Translations under genes and position numbers: made by a program | Part shown: positions 1,549 through 17,820 of the stretch, piece by piece | Layout: each line of letters begins with the position of its first letter | How positions within the stretch are numbered: position 1 is the stretch's first letter | Notes under the pieces: model-generated | What the model saw: only the letters and a program-made list of their open reading frames with translations | Databases searched by the model: none | Told to the model about the DNA's origin: nothing | From: Octopus sinensis | Lineage: Eukaryota | Reading direction: 5' to 3' | Assembly: GCF_006345805.1 (NCBI RefSeq) | Contig: NW_021836354.1 | Location: forward strand, 1 to 24,665 | DNA: 24,665 nucleotides

Positions 1549-1594
<46 letters not shown>

Positions 1595-1623
1595 AGTAAG
1601 CAACAAGAATATCTTCGGTATTT

Positions 1624-1705
1624 TGGTACGATCGTTTCACGCTACATCATTCTATTAAACATTGTAAGTATTACATCAGTTTAAATGTTGAGCAATCATC
1701 AGCCA
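1624..1705 (-). ncRNA. Type I hammerhead ribozyme, long stem II (inverted copy)
   Basis: Minus strand reads UGG-CUGAUGA-[~57-nt stem II]-GAAA-CGAUCG-UA-CCA. Confidence 0.75.
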
Positions 1706-1736
1706 TTCATATGTACTGATGGAAAACCTCTATGAA

Positions 1737-1819
1737 TGGCTGATGATTGCCCAACATTTTAAACTGATGTAATACTTACAATGTTTAATAAAATGATGTA
1801 GCGTGAAACGATCGTACCA
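1737..1819 (+). ncRNA. Type I hammerhead ribozyme, long stem II
   Basis: Stem I UGG/CCA; core CUGAUGA at 1740-1746; extended stem II; GAAA at 1805-1808; palindromic stem III ACGAUCGU; GUA cleavage triplet ending at 1816. Confidence 0.75.
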
Positions 1820-1949
1820 AAATACCGAAGATATTCTTGTTGCTTACTTTGATTATAATCACCCCATGGATTTATATGGATAACAGCGTACAAAATTCGG
1901 GTGCATCTGACTTAAGTACCATATTCATTTGAATCTCTATATATATGTG

Positions 1950-1996
<47 letters not shown>

Positions 1997-2013
1997 AGTG
2001 TGTGTGTGTGTGT

Positions 2014-2307
2014 GGAGGCGCAATGGCCCAGTGTTTAGGGCAGCAGACTCGCAGTCGTAGGATCGTGGTTTCGATTCCCAGACCGGGCGTTGTGTGTGTT
2101 TATTGAGCGAAAACACCTAAAAAGCTCCACGAGGCTCCGGCAGGGGTGGTGATCCCTGCTGTACTCTTTCACCACTCTTTCTCTCACTCTTCTGTTGGCC
2201 TGCCGCTTAGCCAGCGGGGTGGCGTCATTCGAAGGCTAAAAAACAATGCGAACGCATTGTGACCAGCGATGTGTAACAACATCTGATGGTCTGGTCGGTC
2301 ACGTGAT

Positions 2308-2347: not shown

Positions 2348-2350
<3 letters not shown>

Positions 2351-2390
2351 TTCAAATGAATATGGTACTTAAGTCAGATGCACCCGAATT
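2348..2390 (-). repeat. Perfect 43-bp inverted copy of 1894-1936 (element tail end)
   Basis: Exact reverse complement by eye. Confidence 0.9.
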
Positions 2391-3512: not shown

Positions 3513-3620
3513 AAGAAGCTGCATGTGCACTGCCCGTCAACTGTGCAATGAAATAATATGTTGTATAAAATTGTAAAATAAGAGGAAATAAATTTTGAGG
3601 ATGAACAAGTTTCCATGTTT
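3513..3620 (-). repeat. ~105-bp inverted copy of 5360-5467
   Basis: Reverse complement aligns with scattered substitutions. The ORF track shows the same pseudo-peptide in both (KHGNLFILKIYF / KHGDLFILKIYF). Confidence 0.9.
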
Positions 3621-4266: not shown

Positions 4267-5467
4267 GTACGGTCGTTGTTCGTAGCGTCTGCCTGGACGG
4301 GTGGCTCGTCCACGAAAGTCGTAGGTCCCGCAATTGTACGTAGACCCACACCTCGCTCGTGGTGGACGGGTGTTAATGTGTGGGCATGCGGCGATCCATT
4401 TCCAATGGCCCAACACCGCACCACACCAATTATAGCCGCACCCGGGGATGGTTAGATGAATCCGGCAAGCGCGCACCCTCCGGTGCAAGGTGGAACCGCC
4501 CACTTGAAAATACCGGGGTTTAGGTGAGGTTATGATCCGTGCATCGAGGGATTTGCAGCCGATCCCGCAGGCGGATGGATTCACCCCCTGGACGCGTGGC
4601 TTCGTCCCCTTAAAGTCGGGGCCCTGCTTGATCCCTCGCTCGGTCGCTCGAGGACTTGCAGAAAATCGGCGATGGCGCTGCCCACTATAATAACCAGAGC
4701 ATCCCGATGAGCGCGTAGATTCGGGGTGAGTGGGACCGACCACTATAATACACCGGCGTCCTGGGTTAGATGACCCCTCCGCTGCGGACACGCTCTTAGT
4801 CCGTTTCGGTAGGGAAGCTCCACTCCTTGACGGATGGCGCCGTCCACCTTAATACACCGGCACCCCGGGATCCCCTTCGCCTTATGAGAAAGGTTGCTGG
4901 GCGTTGGACCAGATTCTGGGGAGGTGGCTGCGGTCACCAAATCTAGGGGTCCTGATGCGCGGCCAATTTGCCCTCGTCCGTCATTGAGGTCCCCTGCGGC
5001 GCTTGAGTGGGGTCTGCCTCGAAAGCGGCCTGCACACGGGAGTGGCCTGCATCAAGAGAGAGCTTCCGAGTTCGACCGACCCCTCTTGTGTGCCTCATCT
5101 CCTGCACTAGGTTGTCCTGGCGATCGGACATCCTAGAACGCGTGCAAAGGAGGGGGGGCTTGCTAATTGGCGATGGCTAACCTCTCAAGGCGCGATGGCA
5201 CCGTCCACGGTAAAAAACGAGACCGGCGCTGACTATTCGTGTGCGCCTTAGACTCGGCTTTGGTGTAGCAAGACAACCACCGGAAGGACAGCGTGCGCGT
5301 CGATATCGGATGAAGTACGCGTGGGACCGCCCACGTTAAATCAACAGGGAAAGATTGCGAAACATGGAGACTTGTTCATCCTCAAAATTTATTTCCTCTC
5401 ATTTTACAATTTTATGCAACATATTATTCCATTGCACAGATTACGGGCAGTGCACATGCAACTTATT
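4264..5467. other. Unassigned GC/CpG-rich ~1.1-kb segment ending in a degenerate hammerhead-like motif and AT-rich tail; probable mobile element
   Basis: Abrupt composition shift after (TA)n; many hairpins; five copies of a degenerate motif; tail duplicated in inverted orientation at 3513-3620. Confidence 0.5.
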
Positions 5468-6039: not shown

Positions 6040-6540
6040 GTATTAATAAAATAGATGGTGTGCGTAATAGATTTTATTGGGTACAACACATGTTTCGACC
6101 CGTTCTGGGCCTCTTCGGGAACATTAGTAATAAGTCTCTCTAGAGATTTCTTGAGTCGGCTAACGTACCGCTATATGTCCAGCAAATTCGAGAATGAACA
6201 AAAACAGAGAAAAATTATTGAAACGCAAAAAATTCAAATATGAACGTGGAAAGTATACATTCCAGTTTAGAGAAAATGATGTGATGAGCCTTTGCTGTTG
6301 TAACTGTTCAGAGAAAGAAAAGGAAGTAGAAGTTGAAAGGAATATAATAAGTATTATCGAAACATGTGTTGTACCCAATAAAATAATAAAATCGATTACA
6401 CATTCCATCTATTTTACTAATAATGTTACCCCAACCGCCACTACGAAGTTCCTGCAATAAATCTACGGATAACAACAGGGAATCGAAACGGTGCCGGTGC
6501 TTAACTCATCATCCATTTATACATTTTCCATCATTTCTCT
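6040..6540. mobile_element. Fold-back Penelope-like remnant with degenerate hammerhead
   Basis: Inverted arms 6040-6098 / 6357-6424. Minus strand reads CCGAAGA-GGCCC-agaac-GGGTC-GAAA-CATGT at ~6087-6118. Microsatellites on both sides. Confidence 0.6.
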
Positions 6541-8557: not shown

Positions 8558-10555
8558 TATGAACTCTCCCGTCGGTTTCAACATATGAGGCTCTGGCAAC
8601 ATACTCTTTCTTTGTCAGTCATAATGCTAATGTCGAATGTGACATTTAAGTCCACCCAATGATTTGCAAAGAAGGCCACAGATCCTGCAAGTATGAGGAT
8701 CACAGGTCAGTGCAGGTGGTATATTTTCACCCGCTTTTCTCCTTTGCCTTGCACCATGAATCCTGTTAATGCTGGTTGCAACAAAGGTCCTAATACCATT
8801 TTCACACAACGATCCCCATTTTGTCCGTTCCAAGGCTGTTCACTCAAAGGTGTTGTGAGCAATCTTCAGTTCTAAGAGGTCACTCTTTAGCTTGTCCTTA
8901 TATCTGAGCCATGATCAACCAACATTCCTGTGCCCACTCTCAGGCTGGCTGTACATGAGGACTGTGGGTATTCTTCGGACACTCATTCAAGAGAGTAGTA
9001 AGAATGGCTACTTTATAGACCTTTACTTTGCTACCAAGTTTGATGCCCCTTTCATTCCATAGGCGTTGACGGTGTTTGCCAAATGCGTTGGTTGCCTTTG
9101 CAAGACAGTTAACGATTTCATCATCAAGGGAAGCACTCAATTTCACTATACTACCAAGATATGTAAATGACTTCACATAATTTAAGCTATTCCCATCAAC
9201 CTGTATAGGAGTGTCAGGAGAATTGTGAACCGCTAGCCTCTGCTTGACACCTCAAATTTGTTTAGGAGTAGAGCAAGGTTGGTGGATTACTTCTGTCTTC
9301 TTTATACTGATGGCCAAACCAAAGGCTTTACATGCAGAAGAAAACCGGTATAGAAGTTCCTGAGCTTCCTTTAAAGAGGTTGCTACTAGTGCAGCAGCAT
9401 CTGCAAAAAGTTGATGACGAATGATAATGGTGCGTAGCAGTGTTCTGACTTCGAAATGCTGATGATTGAATAGTCCACCACTTGTTCGAAACTGGAATTT
9501 GACACCACATTGTATGCCACCAAAAGCATACCTCAGCATCACTGAAAAGAAGAGTGCAAACAAAACAGGGGTCATAACACAACCTTGTTTTGTGCGTTTG
9601 TGACATTGACGGAAACCGAAAATTCACCACCGGACACAACAGCTTTTATTCTCTTATGAAAGGAGATAATAACATTCAACATCTTGTCAGGTATACCAAG
9701 CTTTGTCAGAACTTTCCATAGTTCTTGCTGGTGTCGAAGGCCTTAGTAAGATCAACTAATACCATGAAGAACTCTTGATTTTTCTCACATACCTTCTCCA
9801 TGACCTGTCGAGGGGAAAAGATCATGTCGATAGTGCCACGATCACAACGAAATCCACAATGTGATTCTGGATAGATATAATTTACAACGTGTTTAATAAT
9901 CTCGTCAAGAATGAGTCGAGCAAAAATCTTACCAGCGACAGACAAAAAAGTGATATCCCACGATGATTATCACAGACACCTCTCTTCAACACCGTGCTCT
10001 TCAGAACCATACACTTTCTGTCTTCTTGGAGTTCAGCAGCCTTGAAAGACCACCAAGTCTCCTTCATCTGTCTTTGGATTTGGCCTCTGCATTTCTTATA
10101 AGCATTCTCTTTTCTGGATGTGATCTTATCATTTATCCATGTTTTATGGGGGCTGTACATTTTGTCTGAACAGGAAGCCCAAGAACCTCTACAGGTGCAG
10201 AGTGCGTTGCATCACGCAGAGCCTTCCAAGATAATTCTGTGTCATCATTGATATCAACACTGTTGAGTGCAGTTTCCAACTTGATAGAGAGCTCAGTCTG
10301 CTTTTCGGTAGTTTTCAAAGGCAGAACATTGATGCGCTTAGGCGCTGATGACTTGTAGTCTTGTGTGTTCCAGATGGGGCATAGGGGGGGGGGCATAGCC
10401 TTGCTACGGAGAAGAAAATGGTCAGAGAGATAGCAAGTGTGACGAAAGGAATGTGTAATGTTAAAGTCCCTAATATCTCGCTTCTTAGTGATAACATGGT
10501 CCATGAGGCACCAATCCTTAGATCCAGGATGTCTTGCAATAATTTCGCTGTTGAA
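8558..10555 (-). mobile_element. 5'-truncated, decayed RTE/BovB-like LINE (APE C-terminus, RT, C2H2)
   Basis: Motifs MDHVI..SDHFLL (APE), CDNHRGISL, PESHCGFR.DRGTIDMIF, VDLTKAFD, KQGCV, QLFADAAAL, GLAISIKKTEV, FTYLGS, CRICGLLCKSLGGLKCHIRH. Many frameshifts and deletions. Confidence 0.92.
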
Positions 10556-12499: not shown

Positions 12500-12663
12500 G
12501 AGTGAAGAGTCTGTAAAGTGTTTTGCAAGCCTTACTGTGGAGCCGCGGGTGATAACCTGGATGAATCCGACTGTGGGTGCTATAACCTTATGCGCAGGCA
12601 TTACCGATATTTTGCATGAGCAATGGTCAGTGATAGTCTTCCTTGGTCACGAATGCACAACCA
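12500..12663 (+). mobile_element. 3' fragment of an RTE-tailed non-autonomous element
   Basis: TGCGCAGGCATT..GTCTTCCTTGGTCACGA is similar to the 3' end of 13909-14491. Confidence 0.55.
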
Positions 12664-12674
12664 ATATATATATA

Positions 12675-12920
12675 TTACGTTTATATATTTGTTTTGCAAG
12701 ATTTTTTATGTGAAATCGTGTGTTGAAACAGATATTGTTGTATTTAGGAATGGTCATTTTGCCAGTTTAGCCAATAAAAACACACGCACTATATATTTGG
12801 TGTTACTTTGCTTCAGCGTTATTTATTTTTTACATTAATCTTAATTTTATTTCGGCCAGAGTTCTTTCGTCACACTTCTGTGACCTCATCAGTGGTCCTT
12901 TGCTTTCTTCTTTCTTATTT
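12675..12920 (-). mobile_element. Inverted Penelope pseudo-LTR containing a hammerhead
   Basis: HHR plus AT-rich tail ending at (TA)n, fused in inverted orientation to the 5'-truncated GIY-YIG ORF. Confidence 0.7.
12854..12898 (-). ncRNA. Minimal type I hammerhead ribozyme
   Basis: CCA-CUGAUGA-G-GUCACA-gaag-UGUGAC-GAAA-GAAC-UC-UGG. Predicted cleavage between 12859 and 12858. Confidence 0.8.
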
Positions 12921-13515
12921 GTGTGTCATGGAACACTATTGAAAGGACTAAGAAGAAAATAGGGAAGGCCAACTCTTGGTATGATAGCCACAAATACCAG
13001 AGTGTTATGTTCGTCGACACCACCCCTAGAGGCGAACTGGCGTACCGCTTTAAAAGGGCCCTAGACAAACGTAAGCTAAGGATTAAAGTTGTTGAAAGAC
13101 CAGGCAACCCTATCAAATCCCTAATCGGTAGAACCTACCCTTTTAGTAGAACCCACTGTACGGATAGGAACTGTACTGTGTGTAGATTTAGCCCACAAAC
13201 AAACTGTAAAGCCAGAAATGTAGTCAATAGTATAAGATGTATAGAGGGACGATGCAGTAACAAGACAACGACATACGTAGGGGGAACGGCACGGAGCATA
13301 GGAAAGCGGGTAAATGAAACATGGGAGAGAACTTAGGAAGGAAAGAACTCATCGCGTCTGTACCAACACGCCGAGCAGGACACGGGGCTCACTCAACAAC
13401 ATAGAAGTTAAAATCTTGTCCACACTAGAACAGACGCAACAATCAGACACTTACGGAAGCTACACACATAATAGAAGATAAACCTAGCCTGAATAGGAAC
13501 TGGAATGGAACACTA
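12921..13515 (+). pseudogene. Penelope-like element C-terminus: Cys-rich linker plus GIY-YIG endonuclease (Naiad-like), frameshifted
   Basis: SVMFVDTTPRGEL..KVVERPG..CxxxxCxxC..C..NVVNSIRC..C..TYVGGTARSIGKRVNE. Continues in other frames (SRLYQHAEQ, IEVKILS, EATHIIEDKPSLNR). Confidence 0.85.
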
Positions 13516-13662
13516 GCACACACCACAGCATATGACAGAAGGGATCCCCATAACTGGTAACAATATAAACAAAACTAAAACATAATAAATACACAGATAA
13601 TAAAACAAATGGAAGTAAATAACTATATACATTAAAAAAAATCAAAAAACACAGCAAAAAGA

Positions 13663-14523: not shown

Positions 14524-14640
14524 CCACACACCACACACCGAATAAGCACATAAATACAAAACAAGGTGGAAAAAATAGTACACAACAACTGAAGGTAGAG
14601 TGATTTTTTTTTGTTAATGCTGCAAGAACATCCAAAAAGC

Positions 14641-14676
14641 TGTGACTCAGAGTTTCACGTGTCCGTTCGTCGGACA
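14641..14676 (-). ncRNA. Minimal hammerhead-like motif, core variant CCGACGA
   Basis: UGU-CCGACGA-ACG-gaca-CGU-GAAA-CUCUGAG-UC-ACA. Confidence 0.6.
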
Positions 14677-14704
14677 ATTGTGATCAAGTGTCTTGATCAC
14701 AACC

Positions 14705-14738
14705 GTTCGACGAACGGAAACGTGAAACTCTGAGTCAC
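14705..14738 (+). ncRNA. Minimal hammerhead-like motif, core variant UCGACGA
   Basis: GU-UCGACGA-ACG-gaaa-CGU-GAAA-CUCUGAG-UC-AC. Confidence 0.5.
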
Positions 14739-14831
14739 TGTTTTTTGTGATGTTTTTTGCAGCATTAACAAAACAAAAGTATATATATATATATATATAT
14801 AATATTTTTAAAAAAATATATATATATATAT

Positions 14832-14900: not shown

Positions 14901-15616
14901 TATGTAGGTAGGTAGGTAAGTAGGTAGGGAGGGAAGTAGGCAGGTGGGTGGGCAGGTAAGGGCATTTTCACACGAAAGTATTTCTTGAATTCAGCGGCCA
15001 TAAAATATATAAGGGCACGTGACATCGTATCAGCGGAATGACAGAGAGGAAGTCGTCAAAGAATTTAACAGTTCATATTCTCCCCTGGCGTTAAACCAAA
15101 GTTATACGGAAAGAGTCGAAAGCCAGAGGAATACAAATACCTCCAATTTGTTTGCAAAATGTTTAAGTTACAAAAATTAACATTAAAATTAGAATTTAAA
15201 ATTAACTGAGAGAAACAGGCTGTTATAGTAATTAAAAGATTAAATGCCACGTAATCATGAATGTATGTTATGGGGGCGCATACAATTCAGTGTGTGTGTG
15301 TGTGTGTGAGCGATGGTTGCGCACACTGGCGTGAAAACTGCGGCTCGTCGACCACGACTGACAAGTGGTATTTATTATATCCGAATTTCAGAGACACACC
15401 CTTGTAATTCGCGACACAAGAAATTAACCCATTAATTGGCCTGTTGGAAAATTGTAATCCGCGATACGTTATATGCAGAGTAACAATGCTACAAATGGTT
15501 TCATGCGGACAATTCAGCAATTTTTCAAGAATCACGATCAAGGATGCTGGTAATTTCAACATGGAGGCTGATATTACCAGCCTCCATAATGGAACGCTCG
15601 GAAATCACGAGAAGAT

Positions 15617-16097
15617 GAAAGGCAAAGTCGACCTCGGCGGAATTTGAACTCAGAACGTAAAGATGAACGAAATGCTGCATTTCGCCCAACGCGGTAACGA
15701 TTCTTTTCTACTCTAGGCACAAGGCTCAATTTTTTTTTATTTTTTTGTGGGGGGTGGCAGTTGATTAGATCCACCCTAGTATGAAAGTGGTACTTAATTT
15801 ATCGACCCCGAAAGGATAAAAAGGCAAAGTCGGCCTAAGTTAAGTTAGTTAAGTTAATTTTTTGGCTCAAAAAGCAAAAAGCAAGGCCATGTAGGGGGAC
15901 ATGGAGTTATGTCATGCAAAGAGTTCAGGCCATTTCTGGTCAAGAGAGACTTTGAACCGAGCGGTCGTCGGCATCTTCACCATCTCGTCCGGCAGCTTAT
16001 TCCACGGATCCGCAACCCGGCCTCAGCGGAATATGAACTCAGAACGTAACGGTAGACGAAACACCACTAAGCATTTCGCCCGACTTGCTCGCCTTGA
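15617..16097 (-). mobile_element. Two tandem copies of tRNA-derived SINE family B; the second is interrupted by a CR1-type fragment
   Basis: GATGAAAGGCAAAGTCGACCTCGGCGGAATTTGAACTC (B box GAGTTCAAATTCC on minus), matching 17055-17820. Confidence 0.8.
15837..16017 (-). mobile_element. CR1-type LINE 3' end with 6-bp TSD
   Basis: Encodes VADPWNKLPDEMVKMPTTARFKVSLDQKWPELFA*; (TAACT)n-like tail; CGGCCT duplicated at 15831-15836 and 16018-16023. Confidence 0.85.
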
Positions 16098-17054: not shown

Positions 17055-17820
17055 TTTCTTTCTACTCTAAGTACAAATCCCGAAATTTTGGGTGAGAGGG
17101 TCAGTCGATTAGATCGACTCCAGTACGCAACTAGTACTTAATTTATCGACCCCGAAAGGATGAAAGATAAAGTCGGAATTTGAACTCAGAACGTAAAGAC
17201 AGACGAAATACCGCTTAGTATTTCGCCCGACGTGCTAACGTTTCTGCCAAGCTCGCCGCCTTATATTCTTTTTGGGGGAAGGGGCCAATCGATTAGATCG
17301 ACCCCAGTATGCAATTGGTACTTAATTTATCGACCCCGAAAGGATGAAAGGCAAGTCGATCTCGGCGTGATTTGAACTCAGAACGTAGCGGCAGACGAAA
17401 TAACTATTTCTTTACTACCCACAAGGGGCTAAACACAGTGAGGACAAACAAGGACAGACAAACGGATTAATTCGATTACATCGACCCCAGTGCATAACTG
17501 GTACTTATTTAATCGACCCCGAAAGAATGAAAGGCAAAGTCGACCTCGGCGGAATTTGAACCCAGGACGTAGCGACGGACGAAATACCTATTTCTTTACT
17601 ACCCACAAGGGGCTAAACACAGAAGGGACAAACAGGGACAGACATAGGTATTAAGTCGATTACATCAATCCCAGTGTGTTACTGGTACTTAATTTATCGA
17701 CCCCGAAAGGATGAAAGGCAAAGTCGATCTCGGCGGAATTTGAACCCAGGACGTACGCGACGAATAACGACCGCTAATCATTTCGCCCGGAATGCTAACG
17801 ATACTGCCAGCTCGCCACCT
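17055..17820 (-). mobile_element. Head-to-tail array of four SINE family B units
   Basis: Four copies of TACTTA(A/T)TT..ATCGACCCCGAAAG.ATGAAAG. Full heads end near 17262 and 17820. Two alternative tails. Confidence 0.85.

Follow-up and report, generated by a model that had tools for sequence, protein, structure and literature searches.

Penelope-like retroelements (PLEs) offer the closest described systems, both for hammerhead motifs in opposite orientation and for head-to-head copies at the point of insertion. In the available parts of PMC4209133, PLE hammerheads have a larger helix II (6-8 bp), a short helix I (2-5 bp) and a small palindromic helix III; dual motifs lie 100-700 bp apart on opposite strands, and a tested PLE motif gave no detectable cleavage as a monomer. 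At the insertion level, the accessible sections of PMC3846280 describe PLEs whose pseudo-LTR is shorter and inverted and whose tail is one-sided, and report head-to-head junctions together with self-priming and silencing by small RNAs. The same layout, with the 5' end taken up by an inverted, 5'-truncated copy, is reported in the portion at hand of 10.1101/2021.04.23.441226, together with a bias for (TA)n and indiscernible target duplications. As far as the text of PMC11167929 was available, it documents internal starts of reverse transcription and cutting at AT-rich sites, together with a ribozyme cleavage that is assisted by protein and is not needed for insertion in vitro. Outside the PLEs proper, the axolotl retrozyme hammerhead HHR_Amex2 is weak as a monomer (22% in 1 h) and better as a dimer, and in the consulted part of PMC7229834 it stands as a natural cleaving motif with a U.U pair at the base of helix II. 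Cleavage sites of the GUA type also occur in natural hammerheads, according to the available part of PMC1636495.

The stretch of DNA analysed here, referred to as the window, comprises the 24,665 nt of Octopus sinensis contig NW_021836354.1 and is repeat-laden DNA rich in microsatellites, with the look of an animal genome. A sequence-only reading had pointed to a 262-bp near-perfect palindrome at 1591-1852, and alignment confirmed it: arms of 121 nt (1591-1711) and 122 nt (1731-1852) differ by two substitutions (1652/1791 and 1692/1751) and one 1-nt indel, at 98% identity, around a central spacer of 19 nt. The palindrome is real, but it is no purpose-built cassette. Its location stood, whereas the unit does not end at 1852, the right copy spanning 1709-1936. 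It is very probable that the palindrome consists of two 5'-truncated ends of one abundant repeat, placed head to head in (TA)n, and that it goes back to a single insertion of a PLE whose terminal repeat carries a hammerhead predicted to be active only as a dimer. The features of the locus are collected in Table 1.

Table 1. Features of the palindromic locus and of the hammerhead motifs it carries (window coordinates).
Feature	Position	Strand	Remarks
(TA)19 microsatellite, left flank	1552-1590		adjoins 3' end of inverted copy; likely part of insertion target
Shorter, inverted, 5'-truncated repeat copy	1591-1711	-	equivalent to 1731-1852
Longer 5'-truncated repeat copy	1709-1936	+	includes 'spacer' and extension beyond palindrome
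3-nt overlap of both copies at head-to-head junction	1709-1711		family letters at joint 1711>1845
'Spacer', ordinary upstream family sequence	1712-1730	+	longer copy only
84-nt 3' extension, tail-like, one copy only	1853-1936	+	records spanning 1823-1936
Short (TA)n then (TG)35, right flank	1937-2014		
Third piece, inverted last 43 nt of repeat (1894-1936)	2348-2390	-	tail to tail with main copy; ends in (TA)n 2314-2348
Right-copy type I hammerhead motif	1737-1819	+	stem I 1737-39/1817-19, core 1740-46, GAAA 1805-08
Right-copy predicted cut	after 1816	+	GUA triplet
Left-copy type I hammerhead motif	1624-1705	-	core 1702-1696, GAAA 1638-1635, 57-nt stem II region
Left-copy predicted cut	after 1627	-	motif read 1705-1624
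Interrupted 58-nt stem II region	1747-1804	+	U.U at base; distal hairpin 1768-72/1776-80
Self-complementary 8-nt stem III	1808-1815	+	monomer 2 bp and tetraloop; 8 bp between two molecules

The repeat family was followed in contigs of three DNA sequencing runs, bearing three different organism labels and aligned to the stretch. Part of 1591-1940 is contained in 20 of the 24 listed runs, with at most 0.31 of the 26 sampled words in any of them, so that the contigs represent relatives or other copies. Aligned contigs numbered 2179, 1875 and 1408 in the three runs, all 30 bins were covered and the largest class had 90-95% identity; the family is abundant and dispersed, contig counts giving no copy number. 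Family records begin at 1709-1710 and pass through the spacer, and others cover 1823-1936 and end at 1933-1936, with variable loose ends behind 1934/1936 and some copies about 15 nt longer. Since the family runs through the spacer to about 1936, it is itself no palindrome. Compared by eye, window positions 1709-1730 match the upstream family letters at joint 1711>1845 at 20 of 22 positions. The state at 1621/1822 is common to both arms and differs from more than 99% of family depth, which fits one arm having been copied from the other or, alternatively, a lineage trait. A metagenome pattern scan returned four loci, all of them chance matches to 14-29 letters of the element, and no family copy; viral contigs scanned for the family yielded 0 copies. 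A raw RNA run compared with the stretch gave 0 reads, a blank without bearing on expression.

Nine of the 13 listed joints connect left-arm sequence to spacer or right-arm sequence at differing points and look like head-to-head junctions with other centres; two strand changes and two internal deletions make up the others. Joints were called at a threshold of 80%, and each is represented by one contig per run (two of the nine in two runs) with a short side of 22-34 letters; junctions upstream of 1709 would escape detection. Judged by position, the motif is lost from both arms in six of the nine, has room on one arm in three and on both arms in none. Under a PLE fold-back at insertion, the two motifs and the hairpin would be by-products, and both arms would have the motif for no other reason than that each copy was truncated about 5-30 nt upstream of it. 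Contigs from two runs do cross a centre similar to that of the window (1655-1763 and 1647-1763, with 9 gaps each).

Of the features of a PLE insertion, an inverted 5'-truncated copy lying head to head, varied truncation points and a (TA)n target were all found. All three 3' ends adjoin (TA)n, and no target-site duplication is visible at the locus, where (TA)n would hide one. The motif at 1737-1819 is close to the 3' end, as in a PLE pseudo-LTR, with a distance of about 120 nt to position 1936, and the one-sided extension measures 84 nt versus the 30-40 nt of a PLE tail. No reverse transcriptase or endonuclease ORF could be linked to the family, whose contigs show at most short loose ends. The third piece (2348-2390) agrees with 1894-1936 in 52 of 54 aligned letters, flanking TA included, and has the same 3' end. 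(TG)n, a repeat of about 300 nt and (TA)n lie between these tail-to-tail pieces; the 300-nt repeat, in which ARAGORN found no tRNA, is presumably SINE-like. The two pieces could stem from one event or from two.

From the two unequal copies, the abundance of the family, the variable fold-back centres and the motif, we infer an insertion in which an element-encoded endonuclease would nick AT-rich DNA and reverse transcription would have several possible starting sites close to the element's 3' end, giving the ends at 1852 and 1936. Reverse transcription would then stop early, leaving a 5' truncation, and the new strand would fold back or switch template at the 3-nt overlap, the end being copied again in reverse. 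Internal starts of the kind described in the available part of PMC11167929 would explain the variable 3' ends. The motif of the parent element is likely a weak cleaver that acts as a dimer, joined by the palindromic stem III and perhaps with the help of protein; at this locus it is likely inert, and the hairpin of a read-through RNA would be a by-product.

Read outward from the centre, each strand carries UGG-CUGAUGA, a stem II region (58 nt on the right, 57 nt on the left) and GAAA-CGAUCG-UA-CCA, that is, a type I hammerhead motif. These motifs had been called intact, which is true of all 11 invariant core bases (C3-A6, G8, A9, G12-A14, A15.1-U16.1), present together with the NUH triplet. It is not true of position 10.1-11.1, where both arms have U.U instead of the highly conserved, although not invariant, G10.1-C11.1, nor of the right arm, in which a C/A mismatch at 1751/1800 replaces the U-A pair of the left arm and of more than 99% of family depth. 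A descriptor of the type I hammerhead, written post hoc after the motif had been seen, matches five places in the window (four loci, the two arms counted as one motif), whereas 300 dinucleotide shuffles averaged 0.057 matches, with one match in 17 of them and two in none; one of the five (914-871, minus strand) may be chance. At E<=1 the whole window was without an Rfam hammerhead match, a blank that carries little weight because the two short hammerhead motifs of the window were missed too. Rfam matches over the palindrome to miRNA families (mir-507, mir-12) lie far under their thresholds and reflect the hairpin. The paired motifs are likely passengers of a known kind, with only the long middle arm somewhat unusual.

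Some of these traits would also suit a non-autonomous, retrozyme-like derivative of a PLE, short and without ORF, which passes through a circular RNA and of which the locus would be a fold-back insertion of one unit. The type I motif, the 2-bp stem III with its tetraloop and the basal U.U of helix II match HHR_Amex2 (PMC7229834, available part), and a preprint derives animal retrozymes from PLE terminal repeats (10.64898/2026.07.22.740005, as far as its text was accessible); the family is moreover highly abundant with no ORF seen, and its unit could reach upstream of the compared stretch, one record carrying 79 unaligned letters before 1709. However, there is no second head-to-tail unit at the locus, no end-to-start joint appears among the 13 listed, and the 3' ends lead into TA-rich or variable sequence, so that a retrozyme-like origin is unlikely and the truncated, folded-back end of a PLE remains the preferred explanation.

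Predicted folding agrees with one part of the sequence-only reading and does not support another. The expectation that a read-through RNA would form a hairpin of about 120 bp that excludes the ribozyme was borne out by the folds, the 262-nt RNA giving a single hairpin at -190.9 kcal/mol versus -73.1 kcal/mol with the ribozyme fold forced, and the stem II helices that it had named were recovered in constrained folds. The further proposal that a lone RNA starting in the spacer could cleave was not supported. In six single-arm constructs the forced monomer ribozyme fold lies 6-11 kcal/mol above the minimum free energy, whereas joining two molecules by stem III brings the ribozyme fold to -26.4 kcal/mol for the right arm and -30.2 kcal/mol for the left, versus -11.6 and -15.4 kcal/mol for two monomer folds, a gain of about 15 kcal/mol from pairing two molecules through the palindrome. 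Single PLE motifs were likewise without detectable cleavage in the consulted part of PMC4209133. The free dimer has a minimum of -31.6 kcal/mol, 1.4-5.2 kcal/mol below the ribozyme dimer. These predictions favour a ribozyme of the dimer type. A monomer fold probability of at most 2e-5 was considered as proof of a dead motif and discarded, another motif of the window giving 1.8e-5 as a rough control; in these models a low monomer fold appears typical of the motif type and is no proof of inactivity.

The stable hairpin lends itself to a different explanation, that of a selected RNA switch in which the hairpin keeps the ribozyme inactive and supplies a substrate to Dicer or ADAR, cleavage being left to RNAs started in the spacer. 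The very stable predicted hairpin, arms 98% alike and the two records that cross a similar centre in two runs speak for it, as would the two arm substitutions, which relative to the family state are both A-to-G on one strand or the other, although two changes are too few to be interpreted as a trace of ADAR-type editing. Among the listed joints, however, other copies fold back at many centres with the motif removed from one or both arms, and the spacer is plain family sequence. Furthermore, the monomer ribozyme fold is disfavoured, the 1751 change in the right arm breaks a pair, and the identity of the arms is explained by young age, which leaves a selected switch very improbable.

Two accounts of the palindrome that do not involve a fold-back at insertion fare no better. 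A mirror half made after insertion by replication fold-back repair, or an amplification or assembly artefact, could be suspected, as no listed contig of the three DNA runs covers the entire stretch and palindromes are hard for assembly; it is highly implausible given that the arms differ at three places, that head-to-head junctions recur in three independent runs and that the window has older, diverged palindromes with the same layout. If the locus were a MITE or foldback DNA transposon, its 121-bp arms serving as terminal inverted repeats and the motif being incidental, the long inverted arms, the short centre and the TA-rich flanks would be accounted for; this account is scarcely tenable and already seems largely refuted by the family contigs, in which the family continues 84 nt beyond one arm and centres and 3' ends vary.

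With the locus best explained as a truncated PLE end, attention turns to the motif within the family. The only core variant at 5% or more of family depth is at 1744, which is position 7 and free in hammerheads. Core sites are variable at 0 of 11 versus 29 of 225 overall (P=0.21; P=0.09 with stem I added), a difference that was rejected as proof of selection, being not significant and coming from clipped alignments that hide variants; the invariance of the core would be consistent with selection. Three of the variants fall at the stem II base. The change 1803 G>A turns U.G into U-A and accounts for 62-68% of depth; three pairs are kept with 1802 C>T and 1804 T>C (26-31%), and a loose end (three contigs of one run) carries a matching 5' strand that makes four Watson-Crick pairs, G10.1-C11.1 among them. 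Three changes in the distal hairpin, found at 23-40% (1767 A>T, 1782 T>C and 1783 G>A), would together add three Watson-Crick pairs. In the middle helix, 1797 T>A at 43-50% breaks one pair. All of these variants are unphased and possibly belong to one subfamily, and the pair-breaking 1751 T>C of the right arm is near-private to the window. The stem II region is no more stable than 500 shuffles (z = -0.7 and -1.0). On these aligned variants the long stem II appears to be family-wide and partly covarying.

Two further observations concern the shape of the motif. At the joint 1750>1796, seen in one contig of one run, 45 nt of stem II are missing and a single letter stands between the joined ends; a short basal hairpin would be left, possibly as a natural short-stem variant. 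Divergent copies, known from loose ends before 1757 and behind 1817, carry unphased changes on either side of stem I, with which this helix would reach 4-5 bp.

Elsewhere in the window, hammerhead-like and inverted features recur, several of them as parallels to the palindromic locus. A head-to-head palindrome at 14604-14778 has arms 87% alike, a 3-nt centre and (TA)n on one side; by eye, its arms contain a hairpin, GAAA, a near-palindromic stem III and UC with no intact CUGAUGA, as if the fold-back had been truncated within stem II or immediately ahead of it. The type I hammerhead motif at 12856-12895 (minus strand), in a segment that ends at (TA)n, is head to head with a broken, Cys-rich ORF from 12923 (plus strand) that has no Pfam match and is followed by (AAT)n. 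Features of this ORF resemble GIY-YIG clusters, a likeness that is no more than a lead from the Atlas (family on 11% and 27% of members) and concerns a repeat family different from that of the palindrome; the region 12660-13640 is likely a decayed PLE end. A short type I motif at 21470-21515 (minus strand), with a 5-bp stem I and a 4-nt palindromic stem III, lies beside (AAT)n. An older inverted pair (6041-6130 / 6357-6422, 80% alike) includes, by eye, a decayed hammerhead-like motif on the minus strand within 6041-6422, beside a TA/TG microsatellite. Pfam on nine window ORFs gave nothing PLE-specific and one sub-threshold reverse transcriptase match (RVT_1, E 6.7e-5) at 9252-9575 (minus strand), likely a decayed LINE fragment. 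Other repeats include an old, diverged inverted repeat just upstream of the palindrome (704-883 / 1028-1301, 68-86% alike, spanning about 600 nt), a 108-nt inverted repeat of 93% identity (3513-3620 / 5360-5467) that flanks 1.7 kb with a GC-rich stretch, and a tandem of about 2.6-3.7 units of 184 nt at 17086-17762, whose repeat is also found at 15608-16089.

Taken alone, the locus matters little, as one of many retroelement stubs; specialists may find modest use in the family. With its many fold-back junctions, it is relevant to the mechanism by which PLEs insert head to head, and some PLE motifs are overlooked by standard hammerhead searches, as its long stem II shows. The residual point of note is this long, partly covarying stem II. 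It is tentative, and on balance doubtful, that the PLE family has kept an active dimer-type hammerhead whose 58-nt, three-segment stem II is held by compensatory change as a functional domain. If so, the extra arm might for instance bind the element's own reverse transcriptase protein or replace the loop 1-loop 2 contact, and would open a way to understand the dependence of PLE hammerheads on protein. The family would then represent a hammerhead subtype with a long arm, one that escapes Rfam and short-helix-II descriptors, and its thousands of natural variants, together with a naturally deleted stem II, could serve as test material.

Compared with known systems, the locus is closest to the insertion units of EN+ PLEs with an inverted 5'-truncated pseudo-LTR, as these are presented in the available parts of Arkhipova et al. 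2013 (PMC3846280) and Craig et al. 2021 (10.1101/2021.04.23.441226). Unequal head-to-head copies, a short overlap, a one-sided extension, a (TA)n target and the lack of a discernible target duplication are shared. Unlike those units, it is a stub of about 350 nt without ORF, with an extension of 84 nt rather than 30-40 nt. With the PLE pseudo-LTR hammerheads of Cervera and de la Pena 2014 (PMC4209133, accessible part) it shares type I topology, a short helix I, an enlarged helix II, a small palindromic helix III, predicted dimer activity and opposite-strand pairs. The 3-bp stem I and the palindromic stem III, which had been taken as unusual, are both PLE hammerhead traits described in the same pages. 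The differences reside in stem II, which spans 57-58 nt in three interrupted helices versus 6-8 bp there, and in the U.U that replaces G10.1-C11.1 in the window copy, family fragments with G-C also occurring. A partial literature search turned up no PLE hammerhead whose stem II approaches 58 nt, although the supplementary alignments of PMC4209133 may contain some. In the consulted text of PMC7229834, HHR_Amex2 is alike in its 2-bp helix III with tetraloop and in the U.U at the base of helix II; it is called canonical type I and lies in 350-bp tandem repeats that give circular RNA, whereas the window locus has no tandem. The sCYDV-RPV (+) hammerhead belongs to a plant virus satellite RNA, with a 6-bp helix III and an unrelated context. 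Likened by description and not by sequence alignment (PMC1636495 Table 1, in the part available), it nevertheless resembles the present motif in a long helix II of 5, 4 and 4 bp split by internal loops.
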